From the IMG/VR virus record IMGVR_UViG_3300032223_002281, positions 1 through 55,037 of that record: a stretch of DNA of 55,037 nucleotides. One strand, 5' to 3'. The DNA comes from a virus (lineage: Duplodnaviria > Caudoviricetes). Each line of letters opens with the position of its first letter. Position 1 is the first letter of the stretch. Made by a program: the position numbers and the translations under genes. Under the pieces are notes generated by a model. The model made no database searches and was not told where the DNA came from. It saw nothing but the letters and a program-made list of their open reading frames with translations. This document shows positions 3,047 to 40,572 of the stretch, in pieces.

Positions 3047-3714
3047 TATGCCCTTCTTTCTTTGCTATTATAAAAATTATAAATTTGATTATAATCATTT
3101 TTATTAATTTTTATTTTAATATCATACATTGCTGTACCTATACTAATTTTACCATGCTCTGAATTTAGCATATGCTCACCATTTTTTTTAAATAAAAAAT
3201 TAACAAAGTTTGGTTCTATAATTATAACATCTGTGTTATTTTTTTTAAAAATACCTTCTTCAATAAGAAAAGGGGTTTTTTCATCTTGTACTTGCAAAAT
3301 TTCAAAATCAATGTCAAGATCTACAAACCATGGACAATAAAACTTATAAGTAGTTAAAAAACAATTTTTATTTTTCATTTGTTTATTAGATGGATAAAAC
3401 TGTCTTATCCATGGTCTATCTAAAAAATAAAAACCTTCATTATAATTTTTTTTAATCCAAATTTCTGCATGAGTTCTTTGCCTTAAATATAAATAACCAT
3501 CTTCATATTTAATTAAGTCTGGTTTTGGATATAAATGATAAACGTAATCATTAATTGGTTTAATTAATGAGTTAGCAATATAATTATTAGATAAAATATA
3601 TTGATATTCAACATATAGTCGTCTACAATTACTTTTGTTTACAATTTCAGAAAACTTTAAGTTTGCCGAATTTGCCCAAAATTCAGATGCCTTAGGATTT
3701 CTATCCCCACGCAT
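3046..3714 (-). CDS. Hypothetical protein, possibly a distant member of the same family
   Basis: 222-aa ORF coupled to both neighbours; YKFYCPWFV and GTAMYDI echo the paralog motifs weakly. Confidence 0.5.
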   Translation of the reverse strand: MRGDRNPKASEFWANSANLKFSEIVNKSNCRRLYVEYQYILSNNYIANSLIKPINDYVYHLYPKPDLIKYEDGYLYLRQRTHAEIWIKKNYNEGFYFLDRPWIRQFYPSNKQMKNKNCFLTTYKFYCPWFVDLDIDFEILQVQDEKTPFLIEEGIFKKNNTDVIIIEPNFVNFLFKKNGEHMLNSEHGKISIGTAMYDIKIKINKNDYNQIYNFYNSKERRA

Positions 3715-3719
3715 ATGAA

Positions 3720-5084
3720 CTACTTATTGTGAGTAACTACGTCGCCTGCAATAATTAAGTCAACTGGCTCAGCGCTGAATGTATAAACTGTTTTTGAACC
3801 AGTTAATACGTCCATGCTGTTAACAACAACTTCATCTGTTTCTCCAGTTGTTGGATTATACTTAAATATTGAATCTCCAACTTCAATTTCAGCAACCATT
3901 GAGAATACATAATTTGATACTCCCTCTACAGTCTTTTTTACCAAAATTGGATGCTCTAAAGTAAATTGTGCAGAATGATCATTATTGAAGCAAACTGTTT
4001 GGCTTCTTACACTTTCTTCAATATCAATAATTGTTGTTTCAGCATCTGCTGTAAAAGTTAGTGAATCTGACTTCCACATAAATACTTCATAATCTGGCTC
4101 ATCTTGATTAATTTCAGAATAGGTAATAGAGTAAATAGTATCTCCAATTGATATATCTTTTGCTTGCTTAGCAATAATATTTCCATTAGAATCTTTTAAA
4201 GTTACCTTGCCAGTTTCAGGGTCGGTTGATTGTGTTCCAACTCCTGGACCAGTTCTAATAAATGTTTCACCATCGATACATCTAATTCCATAGTTTCTTG
4301 GAGAGAATCCAAATGGAGAAAATCCAAATGGTGAGAATCCAAATACACCGAATGGAGAAAATCCAAATGGTGAGAATCCAAATACACCGAATGGTGAGAA
4401 TCCGAACACACCAAATGGTGAGAATCCAAAAACTGAAAATGGCGCAAATGAAAATGATGATGTAATTGATCCAGATGTACCAGTTCCACCATCTCCATTA
4501 GCATTTGTTGCATAAACTGTATAAGTTTGTGCAGTTCCTGATTCTTGTGCAACTGTAATAGAAGTAGACCCTGTATTTCCAGACTTTCCATCAGAAGATG
4601 TCCAGTGGTAGTTTGTAATTCCAGATCCACCATTTGCTGGTGCTGACCATGAAACTGTATCTGTTGCAGTATTTGCAGTTCCTTGAGGTACTGTTGCATC
4701 TCCAGATGCTACTGTAGATACTGAAGGAGTTCCAACTGTATCTGGCACTGTAGTTGCAGTAATTGCTGCTGTTGCACCAGATGAATCAGAAGTTCCATAA
4801 CTATTAGTTGCAGTTACAGTAAAGGTATAAGATGTATTTGACCGCAATCCTGTTACAGAAATTGGAGAAGAGGAACCTGTTCCAGTATATCCATCAGGAG
4901 AAGAAGTGACAGTAAAAGATGTTGCTGCATTTCTTGGATCAGCAGTAAAAGTAACATCTGCCCGTCCATTGTTAAATGGTCGACCTGATCCTACATCAGT
5001 TGCTGTTCCAATCGTTGGTGCATATGGTGCTAAGAAGTCATTCGCACCCTGTGCGTGACCACCAATTTTCTTATTTACTGCCAT
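3720..5084 (-). CDS. Virion-associated protein: FN3-like domains, FGFSP repeats, C-terminal Hint domain
   Basis: GLRSNTSYTFTVTATN (FN3). Hint begins CIDGET (Cys codon at 4280), block B TLEHP, ends VVTHN-K-stop. Confidence 0.8.
   Translation of the reverse strand: MAVNKKIGGHAQGANDFLAPYAPTIGTATDVGSGRPFNNGRADVTFTADPRNAATSFTVTSSPDGYTGTGSSSPISVTGLRSNTSYTFTVTATNSYGTSDSSGATAAITATTVPDTVGTPSVSTVASGDATVPQGTANTATDTVSWSAPANGGSGITNYHWTSSDGKSGNTGSTSITVAQESGTAQTYTVYATNANGDGGTGTSGSITSSFSFAPFSVFGFSPFGVFGFSPFGVFGFSPFGFSPFGVFGFSPFGFSPFGFSPRNYGIRCIDGETFIRTGPGVGTQSTDPETGKVTLKDSNGNIIAKQAKDISIGDTIYSITYSEINQDEPDYEVFMWKSDSLTFTADAETTIIDIEESVRSQTVCFNNDHSAQFTLEHPILVKKTVEGVSNYVFSMVAEIEVGDSIFKYNPTTGETDEVVVNSMDVLTGSKTVYTFSAEPVDLIIAGDVVTHNK
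4299..4454 (-). repeat. Coding tandem repeat (FGFSP / FGVFGFSP)n
   Basis: FSFAPFSVFGFSPFGVFGFSPFGVFGFSPFGFSPFGVFGFSPFGFSPFGFSP. Confidence 0.95.
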
Positions 5085-5115: not shown

Positions 5116-6741
5116 TTATGCTGACAAATCTCCGTAAAGAACCCAAGTATCGGTTGCTCTCTTAAATAGAGTTGCGCCTGACCACTGTGTTCTTAACTTT
5201 AGTCCTGGTGTTGCGTTAATTGTAACTCCAGCATTTGCTGCTACAGTAATTTGTCCTGTTCCAGTTTGAAGAATATCGATAGATGTTCCTACTGGATAAG
5301 CAACTGTTGAATTTGTAGGAACTGTAAGTGTAACTGCTGAACCAGATGCAATTTCAATTACAGAATCTCTTTCAGAAAGTGCTGAAAGTGTGTAAGATGC
5401 TGTTTTTTGTACGATTGGTGTACGTGAAGGAACGCCTTCTTTAGTTTGTGTTCCATCAGTAAAAATTATTCCTGAAGAATCTACAGTTACTCCACCAGTA
5501 AATGATGGTGATGCTTTAGGTGCTTTAGATGCAACAGTAGTTGTTAATGCTGATGCTGCAGATTCATCTGAGGCCAATTGTGTAGCAATTTCTCCCAAAG
5601 TATCTAATGCTCCTGGTGCAGCATTGACAAGATTTGTAATTGCTGTTTGAACATATGCTGTTGTAGCAATTTGTGTTGTATTAGTTCCTGAAGATGCTGT
5701 TGGTGCTGCTGGTGTACCAGTAAAGGTTGGAGAAGCAACTGGTGCTTTTGCAGTCAATGCTGAATCCAAACCTGAAACTTTTGATGTTGAGATGGCTGCT
5801 GAAGAAGAAATATCTGCATCGACAATTGTTCCATCTGCAATTTTTGCTGATGTAATTGCAGAGTCTGCAATTTTAGCAGTTGTAACTGCTGTATCTGCAA
5901 TTTTTGCTGTAGTTACATTTGCATCAAGAATTTTAACAGTTGTTACTGCATCAGAAGCAATCTTTGTTGCTGTTACAGAAGCATCTGAAGGTGTACGTGC
6001 ATTTGAAAGACGTGAATCAGATGTGTAAACAAGGTTAGCAGTATCTGAGATACCATGTACGCTTGTTGTTGCTGTATTGTGCGCTGTTAATGCTGAAGAA
6101 GCAGCAGATGTAGCACCTGTTTGTGCATCAGAAGCCTTATTATCTGCATAAGACTTAGTTGCAAGTGCTGAAGTATCTGCAATTCCATGAACGTTAGTAG
6201 TTGTTGATTTATGTGAGTTTAGGTTTGTAACCCCATCCGCAATATTTACACCATAAGTACTTAATGTACCAGTATGTGTTGAAACTGTAGACTGCAAAGA
6301 ATTATATTCAGATGTAAGTGTGCTTACATCACTTCCTAAACCATTTAAAGTTGTATCAATTTGTGCAATATTTCCAACAAGTGTACCAGCAAGGCTTGAA
6401 CCATTACCAATAATTGTTGCAATTTCATTAAGTGTGTCAAGTGCTGCTGGAGCACCTGCAATAATATTACCAAGTTGTGCAGATGGAATATTTCCAGTGT
6501 TATCAAGTGTTGCTACACCATTATGAGCACCTTTTTGTGTAAGAAGGATATAGTCATCTAAAGAAGATCCAAGATCTTCAAGGTTTTTAAAGTAAGAGAG
6601 ATCGCTCCAATTTGAAACCCCATCGCCAAGTTTGAATTGATTGGTATCTGTTTCTACTCCAATTTCACCAGCAGCAAGTACTGGATCTGCGCTTGTCCAT
6701 TGTGTAGAAGTTCCTCTACGCTGTTGCATTCTTGTTGTCAT
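5116..6741 (-). CDS. Tail fibre protein (Mtd_N/hyaluronidase-type N-terminus, C-terminal adaptor domain)
   Basis: QQRRGTSTQW...GEIGVETDT...KLGDG; VTTAKIAD repeats; SPTFTGTP; ends TWVLYGDLSA. Confidence 0.8.
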   Translation of the reverse strand: MTTRMQQRRGTSTQWTSADPVLAAGEIGVETDTNQFKLGDGVSNWSDLSYFKNLEDLGSSLDDYILLTQKGAHNGVATLDNTGNIPSAQLGNIIAGAPAALDTLNEIATIIGNGSSLAGTLVGNIAQIDTTLNGLGSDVSTLTSEYNSLQSTVSTHTGTLSTYGVNIADGVTNLNSHKSTTTNVHGIADTSALATKSYADNKASDAQTGATSAASSALTAHNTATTSVHGISDTANLVYTSDSRLSNARTPSDASVTATKIASDAVTTVKILDANVTTAKIADTAVTTAKIADSAITSAKIADGTIVDADISSSAAISTSKVSGLDSALTAKAPVASPTFTGTPAAPTASSGTNTTQIATTAYVQTAITNLVNAAPGALDTLGEIATQLASDESAASALTTTVASKAPKASPSFTGGVTVDSSGIIFTDGTQTKEGVPSRTPIVQKTASYTLSALSERDSVIEIASGSAVTLTVPTNSTVAYPVGTSIDILQTGTGQITVAANAGVTINATPGLKLRTQWSGATLFKRATDTWVLYGDLSA

Positions 6742-6798: not shown

Positions 6799-8319
6799 TT
6801 ATGCTACCCCGCCACCATCGAGTATTAGATTAAATGAACCAATATGATCAAATGCATACTGAACAAAGGCAGTAGTTGCAATTTGAGTTGTATTTGTTCC
6901 ACCTGTTGCTGTTGGAGCATGTGGTGTTCCAGTTAACGTTGGTGATCCAAGGTTTGCTTTAAGATCAAGTGCTGTTTGAGTTGCTGTTGATACTGGCTTA
7001 GCAGAATCTGCAGTGTTATCAACTGATCCGAGTCCTACCATAGACTTTGTAATTCCTGAAACAGTTCCAGTGAATGTAGGTGAAGCAAGTGGTGCCTTAA
7101 GTGCTACATTTGAAATTGTTTCATATGTTGATGCTGCTGTAGTAGAAGCAAGTTTTGCATCTAATGCTGTTTGAGTAGCAGTAGAAATTGGCTTATTGGC
7201 ATCTGAGGTATTGTCAACATTTCCAAGACCAACCATAGACTTTGTAATACCTGCTACAGTTCCTGTAAAGGTAGGAGAAGCAATTGGAGCCTTAGCATCT
7301 AATGCTGTTTGAGTTGCTGTGGAGACTGGTTTGTTTGAATCAGAAGTATTATCAACATTGCCAAGTCCTACCATAGATTTTGTAATACCTTGAACTGTTC
7401 CAGTAAAGGTTGGATTTGCAGAAGGTGCCTTAGTTCCTACCAAAGTAGCAAGTGATGCTGCTGTTGATTCATCTGCTGTAAGTGCATCTGCAAGTTCCTT
7501 AAGTGTATTAAGGGCTTCTGGTGCTGAGTTTACAACTGCTGCAACTGCAGTAGATGCTGCATTATCAGCATATGTTTTTGTTGCAAGAGCAGAAGTATCT
7601 GCAATACCGTGAATATTTGTTGTATCTGCTTCATGTGAAGCAAGAGCATTTGCTGCTGTAGTTTCTGCACCTGACTTAGCATTATTAGCCTTTGTAGTTG
7701 CATCTGATGCAGCAGCAGTCTGTGCATCAGAAGCCTTGCCATCTGCATATGTTTTTGTTGCAATTGTTGAGTCAACTGCTACTGTAATTGTATTCGCTGA
7801 ATCATTATAGGTCTTTGTAATACCTGATCCCGCAGTAAGTGCTGAGTTAACAGCATCTTGTGAAAGTTCTGTAATATCTGCTGAATTAGCCTTAAGATCA
7901 AGAGCAGCCTGGGTTGCTGTTGAAACAGGCTTATTAGCATCAGATGTATTATCTGCATTTCCGAGGCCAACCATGGCCTTTGTAACGCCTGCTACTGTTC
8001 CAGTAAATGTTGGGTTATTGATTGGAGCCTTAGTTGCAAGGTCAGAAGTCATTGTTCCGATAAAGTCTGGGTTATCGCCAATAGAGGCTGCTAACTCATT
8101 AAGTGTATTAAGTAGGTCTGGTGCACCATCAATAAGGTCTTGAATGGCTGCTGCAGCATCTGCGGTAAAGTAGACAAGATCTGCCCAACGGTTAGTTCCA
8201 TCACCAATCTTAAATTTGTTTGTATCAATTTCAAAACCAATTTCTGCTGCTGCAAGAATAGGGTTTGCTGATGTCCATTGAGAGGCTGTACCTCTACGTT
8301 GCTGTTGTCTAACTGCCAT
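6799..8319 (-). CDS. Tail fibre protein with internal repeats
   Basis: Same Mtd_N-like N-terminus; 4 copies of PTFTGTVxGITKSMVGLGNVDNTSDxNKPVSTATQTALD. Confidence 0.8.
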   Translation of the reverse strand: MAVRQQQRRGTASQWTSANPILAAAEIGFEIDTNKFKIGDGTNRWADLVYFTADAAAAIQDLIDGAPDLLNTLNELAASIGDNPDFIGTMTSDLATKAPINNPTFTGTVAGVTKAMVGLGNADNTSDANKPVSTATQAALDLKANSADITELSQDAVNSALTAGSGITKTYNDSANTITVAVDSTIATKTYADGKASDAQTAAASDATTKANNAKSGAETTAANALASHEADTTNIHGIADTSALATKTYADNAASTAVAAVVNSAPEALNTLKELADALTADESTAASLATLVGTKAPSANPTFTGTVQGITKSMVGLGNVDNTSDSNKPVSTATQTALDAKAPIASPTFTGTVAGITKSMVGLGNVDNTSDANKPISTATQTALDAKLASTTAASTYETISNVALKAPLASPTFTGTVSGITKSMVGLGSVDNTADSAKPVSTATQTALDLKANLGSPTLTGTPHAPTATGGTNTTQIATTAFVQYAFDHIGSFNLILDGGGVA

Positions 8320-8372
8320 TTACTTCCTCCTTATGGGTGCTGCCCACATGTATCTTATTATAACATCAATTT

Positions 8373-8831
8373 TTAATTGAAATTATCTATTGCTATTCCA
8401 CCATCTATAGTAGATGTAAAAGTTGTATCTGATGCATTTCCAGAATCAGTGCTAGATGTCATTGGACTATCTGGAAAACCAGACTCAATATACATGCTAA
8501 CAATTAAACCAGTTCCATCAATTGCTGTATCGTGAATGTGCTGCGGAATATTATGTGTATCATCAAGCGTTGCCTGTGTATACCATGATCCCTCATAATA
8601 GAAATTAACTCTATTTGTTATAGTATCTAACCATTGTGTTCCATTAGTTGGTGAAGAGGGAGCAGCATCTCCGACAGCCATTGAGCGTGAATCGACATAC
8701 TCCTTTGTTGCTGCGTGTACATTAAGAGTAGGTGTTCCTACTTCAACTGCCCCGCCAAATGAACCGCCGTTTGTTACGATCAGGCCATTCTTAACTCTGA
8801 AGTCTTTATCGACTGTCACTGATAATGTCAT
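8373..8831 (-). CDS. Small tail-fibre-associated protein
   Basis: KDFRVKNGLIV shared with next gene; HAATKEYVD; APSSPTNGTQWLD. Confidence 0.6.
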   Translation of the reverse strand: MTLSVTVDKDFRVKNGLIVTNGGSFGGAVEVGTPTLNVHAATKEYVDSRSMAVGDAAPSSPTNGTQWLDTITNRVNFYYEGSWYTQATLDDTHNIPQHIHDTAIDGTGLIVSMYIESGFPDSPMTSSTDSGNASDTTFTSTIDGGIAIDNFN

Positions 8832-8866
8832 TTACTTCTCCCTCTTCCAACTATTTTTATTTTTTA

Positions 8867-10735
8867 TTAAGCAAGTAATGTTCCAACTAATGTAACTGTT
8901 GAGTTATTGTTAACTGTTGTTACCTGAAGTTGTACATCATTTCCTGCAATACCTGCTGAAACTGATGATGCTGAACCATTTGTTCCAACAATTCCATATT
9001 CAGTAATTGCAATATTGTCAGAAGTATCAAGTGTAACAAGTACCTTTGAAATTTCTGTATGTGATCCATATGCTACCTTTACAAGGAATTCTGCTGAACG
9101 ATAATCAGCCTTAGCCCATGCATATCCTGTTGCAATTCCTGCAACTGGTACTGAAGTTGTTGCTGCAACCTGCTTTGCAACTGAGTTTAACTCAACTGCT
9201 GTAAAGTTTGGAACCACTGCCTCAAGAGCATCTACTGCTCTCTGTGCTGTAAAGTAAAGGTTTGAACCTTCTGTCAAGTCAGATGTTGTGGAATCTGCTA
9301 CACCGTTTTCTGCGGTAATAGTAAGTCCTGCACCTGAACCTGTAATTGTAATATTTGTAAGATTTGCAGAAGTTAAAAGATCTGCTGCTGATGACTTAGC
9401 ACGAGAATCTGTAAAGTATTCATTTGAACCTTCTTCAATATCTGATGTAGTAAGTGCATTAATTGCGCTGTCTGTATAATTTTCAGCATTTTGTTGTGCT
9501 GTTGCAGCAGAACCATTTGCATCGTAATTACCAGCAAGGCTATCTGCGTAGTTTTCAGCATTTTGTTGTGCTGTAGAAGCAGAACCATTTGCATCATAAT
9601 TGCCTGCAAGGCTATCTGCATAGTTTTCAGCATTTTGCTGTGCTGTTGATGCATATCCTTGAGCATTTGTATCTGATGATGACGCTAAACCATCTGCATA
9701 AAGTTCTGCATTACCTTGTGCTGTTGTGGCATAACCTTGCGCTGCTGTATCAACACCTGAAATTTCTGAATCAACATAAGTTGTATCAGCCTTTGCTGCA
9801 ACTAAATTTGCAACATCTGATGCATAATTTGGATTATCAGCAATTGCTGCAGCCAATTCATTAAGTGTATTTAAAAGATCTGGCGCAGAATCTACAAGAT
9901 TTGCTACTGCTGTATCAGTATAGCCTTCTGCTGCAGTGATTGCTTCTGACTTAGCAGTTGCAATAGCATTATTTCTATTTGTAACTTCTGTTGAAATTGC
10001 AGAAGAAATTGCTGAGTTACGATTTGTAACTTCAGAAGAAATTGCAGAATCTGTATATCCTTCAGATGTTGAAATTGCTTGACTCTTAGCAGTTGAAATT
10101 GCTGAGTTGCGATTTGTTACCTCTGTTGAAATTGCTGAATCTGTATAACCTTCAGCAGTAGAAATTGCCTGAGATTTAGCAGTATTTATTGCATTATTAC
10201 GGTTTGTAACTTCTGTAGAAATTGCCGAATCAGTGTAATTTTCAGCATTACCTTGTGCTGTAGTTGCATATCCTTGTGATGCTGTGTCTAGAGAAGAAAT
10301 TTCTCCATTTACATATCCACGAGTTGCAATTTCATTATTTGATGATTTTGCACCATAGTATGCTGATCCATCTGGATTAAGAACGATATCGCCTGAGTCT
10401 GAGTTAAGAGCAATATCATCTGATGCAGAAAGAACGATTCCATTATTAGAACCAACTTCTGTATCTCCATTAACAACATCAATACCGTTGTTTGTTGAAC
10501 CACCAACATAGAGTGTATTTACTGTAACATTGTTAGCAGCAAAATCTCCTGAACCATCACGCTTTACAACTGTGTTTGGTGTATTAGCAGAAGTTGCTGT
10601 TCCACCAATAAGACCAACAATATAGTCTTGATCATCTTGCTTTTTTGTAAGAATGTCGTAACCGTTAATTGTACCTGTTGTACCTTCAACGATAAGCCCA
10701 CTCTTAATTTTAAAATCTTTATTTACTGTTGCCAT
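8867..10735 (-). CDS. Long tail fibre/structural protein with coiled-coil repeats
   Basis: SAISTEVTNRN and AQQNAENYADSLAGNYDANGSA repeats; EGSNLYFT; C-terminal ITEYG domain. Confidence 0.75.
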   Translation of the reverse strand: MATVNKDFKIKSGLIVEGTTGTINGYDILTKKQDDQDYIVGLIGGTATSANTPNTVVKRDGSGDFAANNVTVNTLYVGGSTNNGIDVVNGDTEVGSNNGIVLSASDDIALNSDSGDIVLNPDGSAYYGAKSSNNEIATRGYVNGEISSLDTASQGYATTAQGNAENYTDSAISTEVTNRNNAINTAKSQAISTAEGYTDSAISTEVTNRNSAISTAKSQAISTSEGYTDSAISSEVTNRNSAISSAISTEVTNRNNAIATAKSEAITAAEGYTDTAVANLVDSAPDLLNTLNELAAAIADNPNYASDVANLVAAKADTTYVDSEISGVDTAAQGYATTAQGNAELYADGLASSSDTNAQGYASTAQQNAENYADSLAGNYDANGSASTAQQNAENYADSLAGNYDANGSAATAQQNAENYTDSAINALTTSDIEEGSNEYFTDSRAKSSAADLLTSANLTNITITGSGAGLTITAENGVADSTTSDLTEGSNLYFTAQRAVDALEAVVPNFTAVELNSVAKQVAATTSVPVAGIATGYAWAKADYRSAEFLVKVAYGSHTEISKVLVTLDTSDNIAITEYGIVGTNGSASSVSAGIAGNDVQLQVTTVNNNSTVTLVGTLLA

Positions 10736-12379: not shown

Positions 12380-12492
12380 AATAAATAATTATACCATGTT
12401 AAAACTTGACTTTTGGGTTAAAAGTGGGTAAAATTATGTTATACTTATACTAGACACCTACCAAGGTGTTATTGTTTTCTAAGGAGGAAACT

Positions 12493-13050
12493 ATGATGAA
12501 CGAGAAATTAAAAGAACAAGTAATCATTGGAATACTTACGGTGACTGGCATCTTCGCCGTTTTTTCAAATAATGCTAATGCAGTAACAGTTAATAATACT
12601 AATAGTGAACAGTCTCAGCCCGTGATAGCCCCTTCAGGGGCTTTTTTGGTTTCTAAGACTGCAAATCTTAGTAAGTTAACAAAATATGTAAGCCAAGATT
12701 CTTTAACAGACAAACAACTAAAAGATCTTCTTTATAACGTTGGTTTTCGTGGACAACATTTAAAAGAGGCTTGGGCTGTTGCCAAAAAAGAAACTAATGG
12801 CAGACCATATGCTTTTAATAAAAATGGAAAAACAGGAGATAAGTCATATGGCTTATTTCAAATTAATATGTTAAGAGATCTTGGTCCAGATAGAATTAAA
12901 AAGTTTGGACTTAGCGATAATCAAGATCTTTTCAACCCAGTTATTAATGCACAAGTTGCATTTTGGATGTCCAAAGGTGGACTAGATTGGTCTTCTTGGC
13001 ATGGACTTACTGCCGAGACAAAAATGTGGATTAAAAAGTTTCCGATTTAA
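12493..13050 (+). CDS. Secreted lytic transglycosylase / lysozyme-like protein
   Basis: SD AAGGAGG; signal peptide ending NANA; AVAKKETNG...SYGLFQIN...N...WSSW. Confidence 0.8.
   Translation: MMNEKLKEQVIIGILTVTGIFAVFSNNANAVTVNNTNSEQSQPVIAPSGAFLVSKTANLSKLTKYVSQDSLTDKQLKDLLYNVGFRGQHLKEAWAVAKKETNGRPYAFNKNGKTGDKSYGLFQINMLRDLGPDRIKKFGLSDNQDLFNPVINAQVAFWMSKGGLDWSSWHGLTAETKMWIKKFPI
12627..12647 (+). terminator. Terminator-like hairpin inside the transglycosylase CDS
   Basis: AGCCCC-TTCA-GGGGCT-TTTTT. Confidence 0.5.
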
Positions 13051-13972
13051 ATCCTTTTTCTAACATTTTGCTGTAATAAAATTCAGCATAGTGTAATTGG
13101 CGATGAAGCCCTGGGTGTGGAGTTCTAGTAATTTTCTTTCCTGGGGCTTCTCCAATTTTATGATAATCATAACCATAGTCAAAAATATTTGTGTATTGAT
13201 CAAACTCTTTTTGGTGGCAGCCTATAGCATCCCACCCCTTCATCTTATAAAAAGGCAGCAGCCCATCAACTGTTTTAGAATCTATGTAGAACTCAAAATT
13301 AGGTGGGAACTCTTTGCGTACCCGATCCTGAATATAACTATCAAAATTATTAATAAGAAACTTTTCTTGCTCTTCTGATAGTGAGTTAGTCCATGTTGAC
13401 CAGATCAAACTAATATTATTGACTCTACAGAAAGCCTCAAGCATTTGTATGTAGTTTAAGTTATTTTGATATACCCATTCATATGGTATTGTTGCTGAAT
13501 AGTCCCAAGGAGCAGAGTCTTTTGTCTTCCTTGGTTTGTTACCCAAACAATAATCAGTCATCTTGGATCCATCACCAGAAATAAAATAAAACCTTTCAAG
13601 TGGGGCAAAGTTGCAGATAACATAATCAGGTAAATAGTTATATTTATTAATCATGCCAAAGAAACTAGAAATAATCTGATTTACAGACCCTCCGCTATAT
13701 GAGATATTTCCAACTGATAGTCCTGTAAGATCTGAAAGTATGTTTGACCACCTTAGATCTACTGGAAGACCCTGTCCTAGAGTTATAGAGCATCCTAGGG
13801 CTACTATTGGGGGTTTGCTTTCAAACTCTATGGATCTAATACCGTCTGAGTTCCAGCAATAGTTATACTCTTTTCTTGCAACCTCTGCATGAGTTACAAG
13901 TATGTCAGAGACTGGACCTTCGCCTGGTCTTGGATGAGAAATAATTCCAGATTTAAATATATTAAACAGCAT
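13031..13972 (-). CDS. SGNH/GDSL-hydrolase-like protein
   Basis: ALGCSITLGQG...NISYSGGS...PHPG; paralog of 46366-47334. Confidence 0.55.
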   Translation of the reverse strand: MLFNIFKSGIISHPRPGEGPVSDILVTHAEVARKEYNYCWNSDGIRSIEFESKPPIVALGCSITLGQGLPVDLRWSNILSDLTGLSVGNISYSGGSVNQIISSFFGMINKYNYLPDYVICNFAPLERFYFISGDGSKMTDYCLGNKPRKTKDSAPWDYSATIPYEWVYQNNLNYIQMLEAFCRVNNISLIWSTWTNSLSEEQEKFLINNFDSYIQDRVRKEFPPNFEFYIDSKTVDGLLPFYKMKGWDAIGCHQKEFDQYTNIFDYGYDYHKIGEAPGKKITRTPHPGLHRQLHYAEFYYSKMLEKGFKSETF

Positions 13973-14054
13973 TAATATATCCAGTTTTTCTTTTTAATAT
14001 TTTTATACTTTTTATATTCTTTATATTTAAAAAGCATACGCTGTATAAAACTAA

Positions 14055-14258
14055 TCACCATTTACCAAGCGGACAAGTTGCTTCTTCCAGTTTAACCTTA
14101 AGGTGCATCAAACATCCGCACTTAGCACATTGCTTTGTTAAGGAAATAAATTCTGGACACCAATTACAGATATCATATCTTTCTTTAGCAACCTCATCAT
14201 TTGATCTTGGTTTATTGGGATTTAATAGATCCCAAGGTTTAACAGTTTTTTTGTTCAT
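14055..14258 (-). CDS. Small Cys-rich protein (DUF6171-like)
   Basis: RYDICNWCP...CAKCGC...CPLGKW; paralog at 20250. Confidence 0.65.
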   Translation of the reverse strand: MNKKTVKPWDLLNPNKPRSNDEVAKERYDICNWCPEFISLTKQCAKCGCLMHLKVKLEEATCPLGKW

Positions 14259-14340
14259 TTTTACTCCTTATTAAAATTGTATCATAGATCTCTTATAAAT
14301 GGTATTCTAAGCGCCCTTGGTTCTAAAATAATTTAAAATA

Positions 14341-14916
14341 CTAACTAATATCTTTTTCATTTTGTTTTCTAATATTTGTGTATAAATATTCTGGCCCCTC
14401 TGTAAAATACCAATGTTCTGGTTCGCAATAAAAAAAGAAAGCGTTGCAGACTATATTAGTATCGGGATCTGGAAAATCTTCTCTCCAATGCTCTTGATCG
14501 TTTCCATAGGATATCACTGCCTCATTCTCTAAAGGAGTAAACTTCTTTCCTTTTACATAAAAATCCCAGGGAGTTTTTGCAAATACTGTTAGATTTATAT
14601 GATAAGTACAGGCATTATCATCTTTATGCTTCCAAAGTCTTGCTTCTTTACCCTCATAAATGCTAATTAGGCACCAAGATGGCTTTAGTGTTTCTGAGTC
14701 AAACTCTATTTTTGCAGTTGATAAAAGTTTATTATGAAAATATTTTAATGGAAGTAAATGTTCTGGAACTGACTTACCCCATAAAGCCCATTGATGTCTT
14801 CCAAAACCTTTATCAAAAGTACTTTTATCTCTTTGATAAATGTTTATTGCATATTCTTTTAAAACTTTAAAATCTGATTCACTAAAAACATTTTTTATTA
14901 AATATGGATCTTTCAT
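14341..14916 (-). CDS. 2OG-Fe(II) oxygenase
   Basis: LWKHKD...QEHWR facial triad. Confidence 0.75.
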   Translation of the reverse strand: MKDPYLIKNVFSESDFKVLKEYAINIYQRDKSTFDKGFGRHQWALWGKSVPEHLLPLKYFHNKLLSTAKIEFDSETLKPSWCLISIYEGKEARLWKHKDDNACTYHINLTVFAKTPWDFYVKGKKFTPLENEAVISYGNDQEHWREDFPDPDTNIVCNAFFFYCEPEHWYFTEGPEYLYTNIRKQNEKDIS

Positions 14917-14924
14917 GATCTCTC

Positions 14925-16361
14925 CTACTTATTGTGAGTTATGATATCGCCTGCTATAATAATATCGCCTGGTTCTGCACTAAATATATAAACTGGATCA
15001 GCATTAGATAATATATCAATAGAATTGATTTTTGTATTATTATAAAGTCCAGTAGATTGATCATATTTAACAATAATATCTCCTACCTCTAATTCTGCTA
15101 CCATTGCAAATTTCCAAGAATCTACATTATTTTCTAATTTATTAACAAGAATTGGATGCTCTAAAGTAAACTGCACTGATTGATCATCATTAAAATAAAC
15201 AGTTTGTGTTTTATTTAATTCTTGAACATCAACAATTGTAGTGGTTGAATTTTCAATAAATGTTAACGAGTCTGATGACCAAGTAAACACCTCATAATCT
15301 GGAGAATCAATATTTATTTCTGCATAAGAAACAGTCATAATCTCATCTCCAATCTCAATATCCTTTGCTTGTTTTGCAACAATATTTCCATCTGAATCTA
15401 CAAGTGTAATCTTTCCAGTTATTGGATCTATAGACTCTGTACCCAGTGCTGAAGAAAGTCTTATAAAAGTGTTTCCAGAAATACACCTTACTCCATATGT
15501 AGTTGTGGAGAATGAATATGGTGTTGGTGTAGGTGTTGGCGTTGGTGTAGGCGTTGGAGTTGGAGTTGGTGTAGGAGTTGGAGTAGGCGTTGGAGTTGGA
15601 GTTGGTGTAGGAGTTGGTGTAGGCGTTGGAGTTGGAGTTGGTGTTGACACTGGATCACCACAACATTGCCACCCTTGTGGAACTGAATACTGTAAATAAT
15701 TTCCTAAATAGTTAAATCCTAATTCAAGACAAGTTTTTGATGTTGGGTTAGTTGCCTGTCCAGGACATGATGGTGGTGTAGGAGTTGGTGTAGGAGTTGG
15801 TGTAGGAGTTGGTGTAGGAGTTGGAGTTGGTGTAGGAGTTGGTGTGGGAGTTGGAGTGGGAACTGTTGGACAGGTCCAAGATTCTGTTCCTGCTCCAGGA
15901 CATCCTGCAGGAATTACATAAATATCAACACTTATAACAGATCCATTACATACTCTTGCTTCACGATAACTATAAACTGGTGTACAGTTTGGAGTTGGCG
16001 TTGGTGTCGGTGTTGGAGTTGGCGTTGGTGTCGGTGTTGGAGTTGGCGTTGGTGTCGGTGTTGGAGTTGGCGTTGGTGTCGGGGTTGGTGTTGGGGTTGG
16101 TGTTGGTGTCGGGGTTGGTGTTGGAACATATGTATAGTATGTAAATGAAATATTTGTTTCATAATCTACTAGCGTTCCACTAGAAATAGATTGAAAAGAA
16201 ATATGATTATCTAAATTAATATTGTATGTGCCAGTTGATCCAGAATTTAAAAAATTTAAACCAAGAGAAGTTAATAATGCTTGGGCTTCAGTTACAGTTT
16301 TTGTAGATAAGTCTGGTACTGAAACCATTCCTTTAGATGCCCATTGAAATAAATTTAGCAT
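14925..16361 (-). CDS. PASTA-like N-terminus, three (Pro-Thr)n tracts, Cys-rich spacers, C-terminal Hint domain
   Basis: [16 protein letters not shown]; Hint begins CISGNT (Cys codon at 15485), TLEHP, ends IITHN-K-stop. Confidence 0.8.
15519..16125 (-). repeat. Three coding (Pro-Thr)n tracts
   Basis: Hexamer repeats at about 15519-15645, 15775-15861 and 15990-16125, with synonymous variation. Confidence 0.95.
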
Positions 16362-16368
16362 CTTATAC

Positions 16369-16998
16369 CTAAGCCGTCAAATCGCCAACAAGCAACCAAG
16401 TATTTGTATCAACTTTTACAAGTACACAACCTGCATATTGAGAAGATATTTTTTTGTTTGAATTCTTGCTATTAATTGTAACGCCAACTGCGCCAGCAAT
16501 AGAAACATTTCCAGTTCCACTTCTTACAATTTCAATTTTTTGTCCATTAGAAAAAGAAGTAGTACTATTTGCTGGAATAGTAATAATTACATCAGATGAT
16601 GAACTTACATTAATTGTTTTACCAGCATGGTCTTTATTTAATTGAAAACTAGATGTTTGAAGTGATAAAGTTGTTGAATCATTGATCCAACGCCATTCTC
16701 CATTGTAATAATATTGAATTTGATTTATAACAAATCCATCATTGTCTTGTCTAATAAAACAAACAATTCCATTTGTTGGAGAAACAATTGCAGCATCTCT
16801 AGCAGTTGGATTTTGAAAATTATTTACTCCAGCCTTTGCATTAATAACCATATCAAAATTAACTACTGAAGAAAAATGTTGATCTGCAGTCCAAGTGTAT
16901 TGTGCATTTGTATTAACTGCCCCACCAATTGCATACCAAGTATCATTTTGTTGATTATAAATATATGCTACTTTTCCATCTGAATTAATTGTTGACAT
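16369..16998 (-). CDS. Tail-associated protein with C-terminal adaptor domain
   Basis: C-terminal ~90 aa paralogous to the end of 5116-6741 ([10 protein letters not shown]). Confidence 0.7.
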
Positions 16999-17110
16999 CT
17001 GATGTAATCCCCAATGCTCTTAATTCTGCTTCTGTAATTCCAGTAACTGAAATTAATTTAGCAATACCACTTTCACGAAGTTGTTGTTCTGTTGTTTTTT
17101 CTTTAGCCAT
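16985..17110 (-). CDS. Small hypothetical protein (41 aa)
   Basis: MAKEKTTEQQLRESGIAKL...; fills the gap with stop/start overlap. Confidence 0.45.
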   Translation of the reverse strand: MAKEKTTEQQLRESGIAKLISVTGITEAELRALGITSDVNN

Positions 17111-17535
17111 TATGCACCTATTGCTCTCCATTGAGTTCCAGACCAAACATATAGTGTTAATGGACTAGTATCGGAATCTACCCATAATGCACCAGTTGAT
17201 GGGTTTGATGGGGCAGATGTTTGATACGAAGAAACTGCATATTGTACATTAGAAGTTGCTGATGTTGTAGAATCTACCCAAATATACCCATTATCAATTC
17301 CTGTAGGTTGTGTAGATGCAACAGAAGACCCTAATGCTTTATCTTTAATTGTTTGAATATCAGTTTCAATGCTATGCAAATGACCAACTAATGAATTTGC
17401 AACAATATCTCCAGTAGTTGCAACTGTATTTGATGTTCCATAATGGTATAACTTTAATGCTGCTTGAATATCAGCGGGATCGTCAAGACCAGGTATTTTA
17501 GTTGGGTAAACTGAACCTATATTTTCTGCAGCCAT
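17110..17535 (-). CDS. Virion structural protein
   Basis: APSNPSTGALWVDSD...VWSGTQW motifs. Confidence 0.6.
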   Translation of the reverse strand: MAAENIGSVYPTKIPGLDDPADIQAALKLYHYGTSNTVATTGDIVANSLVGHLHSIETDIQTIKDKALGSSVASTQPTGIDNGYIWVDSTTSATSNVQYAVSSYQTSAPSNPSTGALWVDSDTSPLTLYVWSGTQWRAIGA

Positions 17536-17543
17536 ACATAAGA

Positions 17544-18101
17544 TTATACCATAGAAATAAACAAATGAACTGTTTTATTACCAGATAAATTAGACCAAGA
17601 ATTATCTATTAGTTCTTTTGCATGTATAGTAATTGGCAAAGCCTGTTCTCCAGAATCAGTATTAATTTCACCAATTTGCAAAGAAGATGCTATTGGATTT
17701 TGCCCCAAAATATTATATTGAACGTTTAGATTACTTGATGTTATTGTAGAAGAGGTAATGTCAATAACTGGAACTAAAACAGTCCATACCCCAGAAACAA
17801 ATGCAATATCTGTATAATTTTTACTATAGAAATTTGAAACAAGTTTAAATAATGGTGTCCAAGAACCATCTACATATTGATACATAAATTGATACTGATC
17901 GTCTGTAGGAGAAATGTTTATTGCAATATCATAAACTAATGGGGTTTCTGGAATATAAGTATTTTGATCATTTGGCTGCCCACTTACGGCATAAATATAA
18001 CTTCCACGTTCACCTGTTGCTCCAAAATCTAATTCTACGTTAATTGTTTCAGGACCACCTAAAACTGCTAAATCATCTGTACTTAAATTTATATCTACCA
18101 T
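17544..18101 (-). CDS. Hypothetical structural protein
   Basis: 185-aa ORF in structural operon; GATGERGS. Confidence 0.55.
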   Translation of the reverse strand: MVDINLSTDDLAVLGGPETINVELDFGATGERGSYIYAVSGQPNDQNTYIPETPLVYDIAINISPTDDQYQFMYQYVDGSWTPLFKLVSNFYSKNYTDIAFVSGVWTVLVPVIDITSSTITSSNLNVQYNILGQNPIASSLQIGEINTDSGEQALPITIHAKELIDNSWSNLSGNKTVHLFISMV

Positions 18102-18480: not shown

Positions 18481-19203
18481 TCAAACCACAGAAACATAAA
18501 TACTTTTTAGTTTTCCAATTGCATCAAAATCTGTTCTTATTTGTGGAACTCCACCTGCAGCCCACATATTTTGATCCTCTATAAAAAATTGTTGATCTAC
18601 AGAAATATCATACGTGTATTGATATTTAAACGATCCAATTAACTTTGACGGAGAAAATTTTGTTGATGAAAATAATGTTCTAAACCATACCTCAGTATTA
18701 TTAGTGTATGTTGTTAATTCAAAATTATAGGTTACATTTACAATAGCACCAATCTCCAATGGTTTAAATGTTAAAGATTTTGAATTAAAATTATAAAGGC
18801 TGGTTCCAAAAGCAGATTCTGGCATAAAATTTTCATTTTTAGTTGAACCTTTTTCAATTAATTCTAAAGATACCCAACCATCGTCACCATTTGTTATTCC
18901 AAGTCTTGCTTCTGGCGATTTTAAGTTTGTATAAGATGCCCAACCTGCTTGTTGTCCAGAAGCAGACAAAGAACTTTTTCCATCTTCTCCTTTTGGCCCT
19001 CTGTCACCTTTAGGACCACGAGCACCATCTTTACCAGCATCTCCATCTTTTCCTGGTTCTCCTTTAGGACCTTGCAAACCTTTTGGACCTTCTGGACCAG
19101 GAACTGGAATATATGTTGCCATATCTGTTGAGGGAACTTGCTGCTGTAATACTTGAGAAGCATAAGCATTTTTAGGAAAATCCATATTTTTTGAAACAGC
19201 CAT
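18481..19203 (-). CDS. Collagen-repeat structural protein
   Basis: Gly-X-Y run GPEGPKGLQGPKGEPGKDG... Confidence 0.75.
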   Translation of the reverse strand: MAVSKNMDFPKNAYASQVLQQQVPSTDMATYIPVPGPEGPKGLQGPKGEPGKDGDAGKDGARGPKGDRGPKGEDGKSSLSASGQQAGWASYTNLKSPEARLGITNGDDGWVSLELIEKGSTKNENFMPESAFGTSLYNFNSKSLTFKPLEIGAIVNVTYNFELTTYTNNTEVWFRTLFSSTKFSPSKLIGSFKYQYTYDISVDQQFFIEDQNMWAAGGVPQIRTDFDAIGKLKSIYVSVV

Positions 19204-20249: not shown

Positions 20250-20447
20250 ATGGAAGATGTAAAATTTAGTGATCTTTTTGATCCTTCAAAACCTAGGTCA
20301 GATAAAGAATTAATAGAAAAACGCTTATCTATTTGCAATCAATGCCCTGCTTTTAATAAAAGACTTGCAAAATGTAAAAAATGTGGATGTTTTATGAAAT
20401 TAAAAAGCACTTTGCAACAAGCAAGATGTCCTTTAGATAAATGGTAA
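20250..20447 (+). CDS. Small Cys-rich protein (DUF6171-like)
   Basis: RLSICNQCP...CKKCGC...CPLDKW. Confidence 0.65.
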   Translation: MEDVKFSDLFDPSKPRSDKELIEKRLSICNQCPAFNKRLAKCKKCGCFMKLKSTLQQARCPLDKW

Positions 20448-20462
20448 TGATATAATGTTTTA

Positions 20463-21683
20463 ATGAATATTAAAGCAATCAAGCCTACATTAATTAAAGA
20501 CATATTTAATAATGAAGACTATGAGTATATTTATAAAATTATTAATATTGCTTTACAATCTGAAAACAAATATGAAAAATTTATTATAAATGGTAATGGA
20601 ATGAAAAGATATGTTTTTGGAGAACAATCTAAAATTATTAAAAACTTACAAAATAAAATAAGTGAGTTATTAAATATTGAAATAGATCATTCTGGTGGAT
20701 TTTTTGCTAGATATAATAAAGATTTAAATGGAAAGCCAGCACTGCCACCACATCATGATAATGCTGGTGATGGGTTTTTTTGTTTAACCTTTACAGCACA
20801 ATTAGATTCAAATACTGATTGGCCAATATACGTTTATGATGATAGTTTTCAATTAAATAAAAATGAAGCAGTTATTTTTTCTGGAAATACAAACATTCAT
20901 TGGAGACCATCTAAAGAATTTTCAGATACAGATTTTTTAGATATTTTTGTTTGTCACTTTTATTTTAAAGGAAAAGATTTTTTATTACCTGAAGAAAATA
21001 ATCTTGAAATGAAAATGCAAGCAAAAACATATGAACAAAAATATGCAAACTTAATTTCTATAGAAAATGAAAAAGATCAAGAAAAAATATTTAATGGATT
21101 TTTTGACACAAAAATTGATAAAGTTTTTAGTGATGAAGAAATTGAAGCAATATATAAAGTAAGATTTGATGATGCAATAAATAAAAAAATGTCAAATGGA
21201 CAGCCATATGTTTTTTCAGATTCATCCTGTGGCTATATAACATCTGTTTATCCGTTGCCCGAATTTGCTAGAAAAAAATTATTAGATTTAGTTAATTCTT
21301 ATGTAACAATTAAAATTAAAGAAGAGGGTATTCATTTTCCAAGATACACTCTTGAGTCTGGATCAACACCACAACTTAAACCACATTATGATGTTGGATT
21401 AAATCACCACGCTTTTACATTAAGTGTACAACTAAAAAATACCAAAAATTGGCCAGTATATGTAAATGATAATAGATATGATTTGGGATTTAACCAAGCC
21501 GTTATTTTTTCAGGAACTAATCAAATTCACTGGAGACCAGATATTGACTTTACAGAAAATGATTATTATGATATTTTAGTTTGCCAATATACAGCAGAAA
21601 AAGATCCGCTTCCTCTATCAGATAAGCACAGAGCCAAAATGAAAGAAAAAGCGGATCAATACGTACAAAAATATTTTAATTAA
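20463..21683 (+). CDS. Tandem two-domain 2OG-Fe(II) oxygenase
   Basis: PHHD...IHWRP and PHYD...IHWRP. Confidence 0.75.
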   Translation: MNIKAIKPTLIKDIFNNEDYEYIYKIINIALQSENKYEKFIINGNGMKRYVFGEQSKIIKNLQNKISELLNIEIDHSGGFFARYNKDLNGKPALPPHHDNAGDGFFCLTFTAQLDSNTDWPIYVYDDSFQLNKNEAVIFSGNTNIHWRPSKEFSDTDFLDIFVCHFYFKGKDFLLPEENNLEMKMQAKTYEQKYANLISIENEKDQEKIFNGFFDTKIDKVFSDEEIEAIYKVRFDDAINKKMSNGQPYVFSDSSCGYITSVYPLPEFARKKLLDLVNSYVTIKIKEEGIHFPRYTLESGSTPQLKPHYDVGLNHHAFTLSVQLKNTKNWPVYVNDNRYDLGFNQAVIFSGTNQIHWRPDIDFTENDYYDILVCQYTAEKDPLPLSDKHRAKMKEKADQYVQKYFN

Positions 21684-40479: not shown

Positions 40480-40480
40480 T

Positions 40481-40552: not shown

Positions 40553-40572
40553 CGCCCTTCTAGGCCTACTTT

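Follow-up and report, generated by a model that had tools for sequence, protein, structure and literature searches.

The minus strand of this locus carries a tail-fibre-like gene, a protein that joins Pro-rich repeats to an intein-like Hint domain, and three further genes. This raises the question of what a Hint domain does at the end of such a protein, and which of the neighbouring genes belong with it. The original prediction described two modules of the same architecture, each with an adaptor gene ending in GDLxA, a Hint protein with exchangeable Pro-rich cargo, and modifying enzymes. The window analysed here is the whole stretch of 55,037 nucleotides. An ORF listing placed all five ORFs of Module 2 on the minus strand between 13031 and 16998, exactly as predicted. 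Module 2 is probably a pair of tail-fibre genes with a variable set of accessory genes behind it. What had been observed in the sequence was confirmed, while its interpretation is partly supported.

The fibre gene and its partner

The gene called adaptor 2 (16369..16998, minus strand) encodes a tail-fibre-like protein of 209 aa ending in LLVGDLTA. PHROG minor-tail, tail-fibre and virion-structural families match this protein, each at its extreme C-terminus. A conserved C-terminal domain makes up the last ~100 residues (about 16372-16668) and has GDLTA as its exact end; GDL[ST][AI] is the terminus in all 33 distinct relatives of the gene. Two lysines of the domain, K183 and K195, are invariant (31 sequences). 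The adaptor of Module 1 (5116..6741, minus strand; 541 aa) has an Mtd_N start, fibre repeats and the C-terminal domain at ~5119-5418, with the end GDLSA; its similarity to adaptor 2 is confined to the last 81 residues (42%, E 1e-17). The same domain closes minor tail proteins in Gordonia phages and others, and in these cultured phages it occurs without a Hint gene behind it. By sequence comparison, the adaptor is a tail-fibre or minor-tail protein whose C-terminal domain is widespread in phage minor tail proteins. Its place upstream of the Hint gene was predicted correctly, but the adaptor label is not supported as it was given.

The neighbouring partner gene (14925..16361, minus strand) encodes 478 aa, and its ORF, domain layout and synteny define a head, a stalk with Cys modules and a Hint cap. 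Residues 1-79 (16125..16361) resemble a PASTA domain. The Pfam score of 22.6 bits is below the cutoff of 23.2, and orthologues of the head exceed this cutoff (P0002, 34.6 bits; P0003, 39.4 bits). In the stalk (15519..16124), the tracts (PT)22 (15993-16124, 44 residues), (PT)15 (15771-15860, 30 residues) and (TP)21 (15519-15644, 42 residues) are separated by two 4-Cys modules, located at 15861-15992 and 15645-15770. The latter, CPG..TNPTS.TC.ELG...GWQCCG, was seen again in relatives. Both modules are likely of the disulfide type. Neither the PASTA-like head nor the two small 4-Cys modules had been part of the earlier description of the cargo. Codons in the tracts are mixed, so the repeats persist as protein sequence and do not stem from recent DNA slippage. 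The Module 1 partner (3720..5084, minus strand; 454 aa) has an FN3 head, a (GFSPF)n stalk (4308-4442) and a Hint cap (~3723-4280) ending in HNK. No significant similarity was found between the two partners ahead of their last 199 residues, and a PASTA-like head in Module 2 stands against FN3 in Module 1, in agreement with the proposal of unrelated cargoes.

Gene order was compared among loci that were ascertained through the Hint gene. In a first set, restricted to Hint genes with a visible upstream gene, a GDL[ST]A-ending gene lies directly upstream in 46/47 loci, and the lone exception is a split Hint gene. The wider set showed the order fibre-then-Hint in 88 of 100 distinct IMG/VR relatives; the GDL[ST]A gene was absent upstream in six of these 100 Hint genes. 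In four more relatives (L196, L200, L187, L197), natural fusions unite fibre domain, stalk and Hint within a single open frame. The pair also occupies two different slots of the genome, where both the fibres and the heads differ. Because every locus is from a group of related uncultured phages that share a conserved tail module, inheritance and not function may account for part of the synteny.

The Hint domain and its catalytic residues

The two partner proteins share 58% identity across their last 199 residues (E 1e-82), and their Hint domains begin at the junctions YGVR|C and YGIR|C. They also have an insertion in common, at positions 10-27 of the domain; of the 69 family rows reaching the N-terminus, just 6-7 have residues there. 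Close paralogy, shared insertion and shared junction had all been predicted and were borne out. In Module 2, the junction and the Hint domain occupy 14928..15518 (minus strand). No Pfam Hint model reached threshold on the proteins of the window, and 13 of 50 relatives gave Intein_splicing matches only below threshold. Identification of the Hint domain, and of the oxygenase described below, required profiles and folds. A 93-row family profile found the bacterial intein-like (BIL) domain 2lwy as best PDB match (E 1.4e-11), followed by inteins. The AF2 model of the domain has a pLDDT of 96.3, and the top 50 Foldseek matches are all inteins, Hedgehog or BIL. VIA gave Z 16.0-16.6 and an rmsd of 1.9-2.5 Å over 130-139 residues for Hedgehog (6tyy/1at0), BIL2 (6y75), the Mtu RecA mini-intein and BIL 2lwy. 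Judged by profile and model, the C-terminal domains of both partner proteins are true Hint domains, as the original prediction had it, and that of Module 2 is probably of the type-A bacterial-intein-like kind.

The first Hint residue of the Module 2 protein is Cys293 (15483-15485). At the other end, the protein closes with His476-Asn477 (Asn477 at 14931-14933) and a single tail residue, Lys478 (14928-14930; all minus strand). Block B is present as T-L-E-H. Among representatives at 50% identity, Cys1 is found in 68 of 69 rows reaching that position, the block-B Ser/Thr in 93/93, the penultimate His in 86/93 and the last Asn in 85/93. The 129 distinct IMG/VR proteins gave a similar picture (Cys1 129, block-B Ser/Thr 129, block-F Asp 112, His 126, Asn 122). 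The tail behind the domain has a median length of 3 residues, and its +1 position is never Cys. It contains Lys in all 83 His-Asn rows (at +1 in 39, at +2 in 32; the background frequency of Lys is 4.1%) and in all 122 His-Asn proteins of the loci (+1 in 70, +2 in 46). The block-B His, described in passages of PMC4031507 as the most conserved intein residue, is kept in both window proteins and replaced by Gln or Glu in 93/129 relatives.

Proposed function, downstream genes and alternative readings

We consider it reasonably likely, from residue conservation and models, that the protein is a fibre-tip partner whose type-A-BIL-like Hint cap removes itself. The Hint domain would act once, on its own chain. 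Cys293 would attack the Arg292 carbonyl to give a thioester, and Asn477 would cyclise, freeing the domain from its one-residue tail Lys478. The stalk end would then undergo hydrolysis or be linked again to the tail lysine, as happens in type-A BILs and ciliate BIL2. The mature head-plus-stalk, with a predicted location in the virion, may work with the tip of the upstream fibre or lengthen it; in some relatives stalk and cap are a plain C-terminal continuation of that fibre. A cap that merely falls off, with a single Lys added back, would leave the benefit of the arrangement unexplained.

The next gene (14341..14916, minus strand; 191 aa) has no Pfam match. Its AF2 model (pLDDT 94.5) has a 2OG-Fe(II)-oxygenase fold; H97 and D99 are unchanged throughout the family, and H143 almost throughout. 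The top Foldseek matches are AlkB, PHD2 and PBCV-1 vCPH, with AlkB leading. VIA gave the highest score to 6n1f, an uncharacterised oxygenase (Z 17.0), then Z 14.3-15.3 to PHDs and P. putida P4H, and 12.5 to vCPH. By the modelled fold, a prolyl hydroxylase cannot be told from AlkB or from a small-molecule oxygenase. Behind it lies a Cys-rich mini-protein of 67 aa with 7 Cys (14055..14258, minus strand), which matches Pfam DUF6171 below cutoff (E 5e-4) and phrog_13558 (E 2e-15) and is probably a zinc ribbon. The last gene (13031..13972, minus strand; 313 aa; GCS replaces GDS) is possibly SGNH-like. It has no Pfam or PHROG match; its best PDB profile match, over block I of a lysophospholipase L1-like esterase, has an E value of just 3, and an Atlas lead (0.94) points to a cluster with Lipase_GDSL in 15% of members. 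The predicted 2OG label thus holds at the level of the fold, and the SGNH label is unproven. An SLT-type lysozyme-like gene (12466..13050, plus strand; Pfam SLT_3 1.6e-15) forms the far border of this variable slot and is conserved among loci. Between the Hint and lysozyme genes, the mini-gene is present in 22/22 loci, the 313-aa gene in 11 and the oxygenase in 7. P0179 and P0181 are fusions of the mini-protein with the oxygenase family, and a second pair (20250..21683, plus strand; HMM matches) combines a Cys-rich mini-gene (20250-20447) with the oxygenase-like N-terminal part of a 406-aa protein (20463-21683; phrog_2954 over residues 9-163), away from any Hint gene. Oxygenase and mini-protein seem to be a pair of their own, of which the mini-protein alone is always found in the Module 2 slot. 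On balance we regard the oxygenase, mini-protein and SGNH-like genes as accessory.

The original prediction made them part of a modifier system, in which the 14341 oxygenase, with the Cys-rich and SGNH-like proteins, would hydroxylate the (PT)n stalk or tailor it in another way, giving a mucin-like structure. Prolyl hydroxylases are indeed among the close structural matches, all stalk types in the family are Pro-rich, and the same YSFTP repeat can be common to two slots of one contig. Relatives of Module 1 have Sulfotransfer_2 (sulfotransferase-like), Asp_Arg_Hydrox (Asp/Asn-hydroxylase-like) and three consecutive 2OG-FeII_Oxy_3 genes immediately downstream of the Hint gene. These enzymes favour some tailoring; hydroxylated or glycosylated PT tracts are a candidate idea. 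As a dedicated modifier system, however, the locus is unlikely to be explained. Beyond the 7 of 22 loci, the oxygenase lies within 5 kb downstream of only 9 of 118 distinct Hint genes, and the enzyme sets track phage lineage. At least seven 2OG-like genes lie in the window, five at a distance of 25-35 kb, so adjacency to the Hint gene may be chance; the second pair also stands apart from Hint. An uncharacterised best match and AlkB as first Foldseek match leave the substrate class wide. The predicted modular order accordingly stands for the coupling of fibre and Hint and falls for the oxygenase as fixed member.

The invariant fibre lysines could suggest another acceptor, with K183 or K195, or a lysine of another virion protein, attacking the stalk-end thioester and anchoring the head-plus-stalk covalently by its C-terminus at the fibre tip, much as BIL2 dispenses a ubiquitin-like domain. 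Passages of PMC8616854 describe an ATP-independent conjugation of the BIL2 N-flank to lysines in other proteins. The strict gene pairing, the fusions and a topology of distal head, middle stalk and proximal reactive end would fit as well. We nevertheless hold such trans-ligation to be quite improbable. Conserved His-Asn and tail Lys suggest that the acceptor is internal, not foreign; where the genes are naturally fused, the stalk runs on from the fibre C-terminus with a polarity opposite to C-terminal anchoring, and the adduct is so far hypothetical. Hint-fold domains without processing activity exist, and most relatives have lost the block-B His; the cap could then be a structural knob or binding domain retained at the stalk end. 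This is very improbable, since conservation of Cys1 (129/129), His-Asn (122/129) and tail Lys (122/122) is difficult to account for unless chemistry takes place at both ends, and the domain is invariably the last in its protein.

Comparison with known systems

In the literature, we found no published description of a fibre-partner Hint system; one GenBank annotation names an intein domain. It belongs to phage NCTB (LT598654; 'putative phage tail protein, contains intein domain'); the phage collection gave no other match, and this one was with relative P0035 (E 3e-4). The protein runs from a collagen-like region through GGGG|C into a Hint domain, followed by His-Asn and a tail that bears Lys. 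NCTB differs in being a jumbo phage whose upstream protein has no GDL[ST]A end, and the protein is known from annotation alone; in the part of the literature naming the phage that was searched for 'intein', no text on it was found.

Removable C-terminal modules on fibre proteins are likewise known from the S74 self-cleaving intramolecular chaperones of tailspikes and fibres and from separate fibre chaperones or 'caps', whose genes also sit directly behind the fibre gene; transient chaperone caps are a subject of PMC10579305. The likeness is one of role only, as the S74 Ser-Lys protease and the Hint thioester are unrelated in fold and chemistry, and no Pfam match to S74 was found in the window's proteins. 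In Hedgehog/Hog proteins (fold match Z 16.5-16.6), a C-terminal Hint domain forms a Cys thioester and in this way frees the cargo at the N-terminus; some Hog proteins carry Thr/Pro-rich cargo. Unlike Hedgehog, the phage protein is without a sterol-recognition region after the Hint fold and has a phage as its host. To our knowledge, Hedgehog does not have the His-Asn of the phage domain.

Closest by profile are the type-A BILs (Amitai, Dassa, Pietrokovski), represented by the Clostridium thermocellum BIL 2lwy (Z 16.0, rmsd 1.9 Å, 130 residues). Both kinds start with Cys, end with His-Asn and lack Cys, Ser or Thr at +1. Passages of PMC4031507 describe type-A chemistry as dominated by cleavage, with ligation possible through the freed amine. 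Unlike type-A BILs, the phage domain lies at the very end of a tail-module protein, comes after a Pro-rich repeat, often has Gln or Glu for the block-B His, and is followed by 1-5 residues that always include Lys. With the pattern used, a search of 185,579 prokaryote genomes gave no member of the phage type. The Tetrahymena BUBL BIL2 (6y75/6tmm) matches the fold with Z 16.1-16.6 and an rmsd of 2.0 Å. BIL2 sits between two ubiquitin-like domains and its acceptor Lys lies in a folded domain, whereas the phage tail can be a single Lys and its chemistry is predicted. According to passages of PMC8616854, BIL2 forms an isopeptide with a lysine amine as acceptor, which would explain the invariant tail Lys of the phage Hint domain.

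Two modules of fibre and Hint genes

The window is a complete IMG/VR virus record (55,037 bases) with a CheckV completeness of 48%, and contigs related to it reach up to about 116 kb. Tail and fibre genes occupy the first 20 kb on the minus strand, and PHROG tail-fibre families were matched at 5116-6741, 6799-8319, 8867-10735 and 18481-19203. The original prediction had placed five ORFs in Module 2 (13031-16998), and all of them are present. It had further named the Hint domains of the two modules as close paralogues behind unrelated N-terminal cargoes. The Module 2 protein (14925-16361, 478 aa) and the Module 1 protein (3720-5084, 454 aa) share 58% identity in their last 199 residues, and no similarity was found ahead of these. 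The insertion ascribed to both Hint domains lies at domain positions 10-27, which are empty in nearly all of the family: of the 69 rows extending to the N-terminus, 6-7 have residues there. Similarity between the paired fibre proteins (adaptor 1, 5116-6741; adaptor 2, 16369-16998) is confined to the last 81 residues, with 42% identity. Thus, the initial sequence observations were correct.

The 478-aa protein starts with a PASTA-like head (residues 1-79; Pfam PF03793, 22.6 bits against a cutoff of 23.2). The heads of its orthologues score 34.6-44.3 bits, above the cutoff. The stalk follows in the order (PT)22, a 4-Cys module, (PT)15, a second 4-Cys module and (TP)21. An 11-residue junction connects (TP)21 to the Hint domain. 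The motif of the second 4-Cys module is also found in distant relatives. The PT tracts use mixed codons, with a DNA repeat identity of 79-92%. The Module 1 partner has an FN3 head and a (GFSPF)n stalk; stalk repeats of relatives are VTP, VTPP, FFxPP, YSFTP or APTAPVA. Stalk type tracks lineage more than slot (YSFTP occurs in both slots of one contig, loci L039 and L042).

The order of an adaptor gene followed by a Hint gene had been expected to be conserved elsewhere, and this is the case. A first set of 57 IMG/VR loci gave, together with the window, 58 Hint genes, 47 of them with the upstream gene in view. The GDL[ST]A domain closes the upstream gene in 46 of these 47 cases, and the remaining case is a split Hint gene. 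Two gene orders were seen. In slot A, the genes p185 and p141, an ORF of about 50 aa and a short fibre gene precede the PASTA-Hint gene, which is followed by variable genes and a lysozyme gene on the opposite strand. In slot B, long fibres and an Mtd_N fibre precede the FN3-Hint protein and enzyme-like genes. In the window, a 53-aa ORF (16985-17146, minus strand) separates the short fibre gene from the p141-type gene, and an ORF of 46-65 aa stands at the equivalent place in every slot-A locus seen. Wider scans for loci used sub-alignments A2, A9 and A10, as no stretch of the full alignment A1 was sufficiently conserved; three single distant representatives, used as queries for locus scans, returned no loci. 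Two further scans widened the set to 128 distinct Hint C-termini, 100 of which had upstream sequence visible. The GDL[ST]A domain ends at most 200 nt from the Hint frame in 88 of these 100 distinct genes.

The 12 exceptions comprise four single-frame fusions, two tandem second Hint-like ORFs and six genes without such a fibre. In the fusions (relatives' loci L196, 4444-6627; L200, 4237-6534; L187; L197) the fibre domain ends ...GDLTA or ...GDIYE and runs straight into the stalk, Cys modules and Hint cap, without a PASTA head. The strongest argument for a single structure of fibre end, stalk and cap comes from these natural fusions. Complex prediction for adaptor 2 (residues 1-209) and the Module 2 Hint region (residues 278-478) with separate alignments scored 0.00 and is uninformative either way. 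The fibre domain itself is not special to the Hint system. It ends minor tail proteins in 206 records of the phage collection, mostly Gordonia phages, and in two such records examined the next gene did not encode a Hint protein.

The nearest cultured relatives of one tail protein of the window are Streptomyces phages, at about 30% identity. This protein, the PASTA head and the Gordonia-type fibre domain are weak pointers to a host. The region under study had no blastn match in the phage collection, and the 185-aa product of a neighbouring gene (17544-18101) had no match there either. The 3' ends of the lysozyme-like gene (plus strand) and the SGNH-like gene (minus strand) share 20 bases (13031-13050). 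Seven tRNA genes (Asp, Arg-CCG, Gly, Glu, Arg-TCT, Gln and Ile-TAT) lie between 31506 and 48963, three of them clustered at 40406-40645.

Fold and residues of the terminal domain

Pfam gave no Hint match for the window's own Hint proteins. Therefore, the identity of the domain was tested separately, by profile and by fold. A profile of 93 family sequences matched the solved bacterial intein-like (BIL) domain of Clostridium thermocellum in the PDB (E 1.4e-11), with many inteins next. A single window Hint domain searched against the PDB by phmmer gave chance matches only. The AF2 model of the domain has a pLDDT of 96.3, and its top 50 Foldseek matches were intein, Hedgehog or BIL structures throughout. 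VIA tied Hedgehog, the Mtu RecA mini-intein, Tetrahymena BIL2 and a bacterial BIL (Z 16.0-16.6, rmsd 1.9-2.5 Å). The predicted Hint fold is borne out by these comparisons.

When the last 187 residues were searched exhaustively by HMMER (E<=1e-3), 140 clusters at 50% identity were obtained, nearly all with the domain at the extreme C-terminus. Pfam was scanned for 50 of the 140 clusters. Heads were fn3 in 23 and PASTA in 10; Intein_splicing was weak in 13 and Hint_2 weak in 2, and PT-HINT exceeded the cutoff in one.

In the 478-aa protein Cys293 directly follows YGVR, block B reads T-L-E-H and the C-terminus is His476-Asn477-Lys478. The Module 1 protein has the same N-terminal Cys, block B and HNK ending. 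Among 93 representatives, Cys1 was found in 68 of the 69 rows extending to it, the block-B Ser/Thr in 93/93, the penultimate His in 86/93 and the last Asn in 85/93. The 129 distinct full domains from IMG/VR loci gave Cys1 in 129, Ser/Thr in 129, the block-F Asp in 112, and the C-terminal His and Asn in 126 and 122. The block-B His is the most conserved residue of inteins, according to the available text of PMC4031507. In contrast, the phage family keeps it in only 36 of the 129 domains and has Gln (75) or Glu (18) in the other 93.

Behind His-Asn there is a short tail, with a median length of 3 residues (93 rows). Its +1 residue is Lys in 40 of the 93 rows, Ser in 3, Thr in 1 and never Cys. 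Lys occurs in the tail of all 83 His-Asn rows (39 at +1, 32 at +2; Lys background 4.1%) and in that of all 122 His-Asn proteins from the IMG/VR loci. In two relatives' loci (L165, 6278-6751; L168, 2293-2769) a tandem Hint-like ORF of 166-177 aa directly follows the first Hint gene. These ORFs lack the terminal His-Asn and end in ...VVGSK or ...VASK.

About 130 distinct Hint-family proteins were collected on IMG/VR contigs, and all members found are on viral contigs. A search of 185,579 prokaryote genomes with the pattern used (sub-alignment A2) found no relatives. In the phage collection, tblastn of the Hint domain found nothing; the only family match there is a protein of Phage NCTB, annotated 'putative phage tail protein, contains intein domain'. 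Our literature search found no paper on the architecture of fibre partner, stalk and terminal Hint domain. The available portions of papers on phiCbK, CBB, cryoconite phages and jumbo phages describe ordinary inteins only. A large family with Hint at the very end of phage fibre-partner proteins is apparently undescribed.

Oxygenase, mini-gene and other neighbours

The gene at 14341-14916 had been predicted to encode a 2-oxoglutarate-Fe(II) (2OG) oxygenase. Its product has no Pfam match, its family profile found nothing in the PDB, and hhalign detected no relation to two Pfam-positive 2OG proteins of the window. The AF2 model (pLDDT 94.5) shows the double-stranded beta-helix of 2OG oxygenases. 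With VIA it matched 6n1f, an uncharacterised Burkholderia oxygenase, at Z 17.0, and 130 chains at Z>=8. The identity was hence settled by the fold search only, as sequence searches gave nothing. Z scores were 12.5-15.3 for P4H/PHD, 12.5 for PBCV-1 vCPH, 12-13.6 for the AlkB family and 14-16 for small-molecule oxygenases, so that the candidate substrate class spans P4H, AlkB and small-molecule types. H97 and D99 are invariant in the family and H143 is nearly so; we infer that the three form the metal triad.

An adaptor-Hint-enzyme module had been proposed. The pairing of adaptor and Hint stands, and the constant oxygenase does not. The interval between the Hint and lysozyme genes was compared in 22 slot-A loci, counted with the window and without de-duplication: all 22 have the Cys-rich mini-gene there, 11 have the SGNH-like gene and 7 the oxygenase. 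Of 118 distinct Hint genes followed by 3 kb or more of sequence, 9 have the oxygenase family within 5 kb downstream, 29 the mini-gene, 65 the phrog_7084 family and 19 a 220-aa family. Two homologues have the oxygenase fused to DUF6171, and the window contains a second pair of mini-gene (20250-20447, plus strand) and oxygenase-like gene (20463-21683, plus strand). The fusion and the second pair argue that mini-gene and oxygenase are a unit of their own. In the 406-aa product of 20463-21683, a phrog_2954-type domain spans residues 9-163, and another 240 residues or so have no match.

SGNH/GDSL hydrolases carry Ser, Gly, Asn and His in their blocks I, III and V. The putative SGNH-like protein (13031-13972) has nearly invariant G60-C61-S62, G66/G68, N89, D269 and H286. 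It had no Pfam match and a single PDB match, in block I, with E=3. Five genes of three families lie behind the Module 1 Hint gene (305-3714, minus strand): a 222-aa gene, two phrog_7084 paralogues and two 220-aa paralogues. Against the PDB, the phrog_7084 family gave only a weak viral dUTPase-like match (E 0.096), and the 220-aa family gave none. H129-D130-H131, H140 and H182 are invariant in the latter and might be a metal site. In a scan of 18 proteins from five loci, the genes immediately after the Hint gene of slot-B relatives were Sulfotransfer_2, Asp_Arg_Hydrox and three 2OG-FeII_Oxy_3 genes. The window's 222-aa gene showed no link to the sulfotransferase-like genes found in relatives, nor did the 220-aa family to their Asp/Asn-hydroxylase-like gene. 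Some neighbours of the Hint gene may have a tailoring role, but this is confounded with lineage. In locus L039, which has a YSFTP stalk, a GDP-mannose-dehydratase/epimerase-family gene and a weak O-FucT-like gene (7606-9679) are located within the tail block, a few genes beyond the Hint gene.

A further five Pfam 2OG-FeII_Oxy_3 genes lie at 39661-40233, 41277-42011, 42925-43533, 43463-44188 and 50393-51112. They are interleaved with two Methyltransf_24 genes and a NodU/CmcH-type carbamoyltransferase (44192-45616). The block also has a TP_methylase-family gene (45606-46373) and a ferritin/Dps-like gene (48335-48790). From these annotations, the 39-51 kb region looks like a dense block of modification enzymes.

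Possible function and known Hint systems

In the best-supported reading, the Hint protein would be a fibre-tip partner with a Hint cap that removes itself; cleavage, ligation and location in the virion are inferred. After loss of the cap, the stalk end would be either hydrolysed or rejoined to the tail lysine. What marks the family is its placement, always after a Pro-rich stalk, always followed by Lys and almost always behind one kind of fibre domain. The exchange of heads (PASTA, FN3) and stalks (PT, VTP, GFSPF, FFxPP, YSFTP) shows how these phages vary the tip of their fibres. Should the domain cleave or ligate in line with its residues, the host-recognition structures of abundant uncultured phages would have a step of assembly or maturation that is new. 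The domain would then also offer naturally occurring small tags that remove or ligate themselves.

We consider it rather unlikely that the Cys1 thioester is resolved by the tail Lys or by a Lys of the paired fibre, which would give, by ATP-free Hint chemistry, a Lys-linked (isopeptide or re-ligated) end on a Pro-rich fibre-tip stalk. If true, a Hint protein-ligation step would take part in virion assembly, and the one known case of such ligation to date is a ubiquitin-like locus of a ciliate. The ligation may then be paired with tailoring enzymes, specific to the lineage, that act on the stalk.

Known forms of the Hint domain are inteins, Hedgehog processing domains, pretoxin releasers and a few BILs. 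A canonical (class 1) or mobile intein was rejected, as there is no C-extein beyond Lys478 and no homing endonuclease. A class 1 intein has a +1 nucleophile on its C-extein and sits in a conserved host protein, whereas the N-flank here is a low-complexity repeat. Membership of the Hedgehog/Hog group was rejected as well: there is no sterol-recognition region and the protein stops one residue past the Hint fold. An S74 intramolecular chaperone was rejected for lack of a Pfam match. In the Phage NCTB protein, collagen-like repeats occur together with a Hint domain and a Lys-bearing tail. Type-A BILs, as described in the available text of PMC4031507, keep His-Asn, lack a +1 nucleophile, mainly cleave and can ligate via a freed amine. 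The phage domains have the same residue profile, with His-Asn kept and no +1 nucleophile. However, a type-A BIL is set between two flanks of a bacterial protein, and here the C-flank is one residue (family median 3). The constant tail Lys is reminiscent of BIL2, which forms a Lys isopeptide (PMC8616854).
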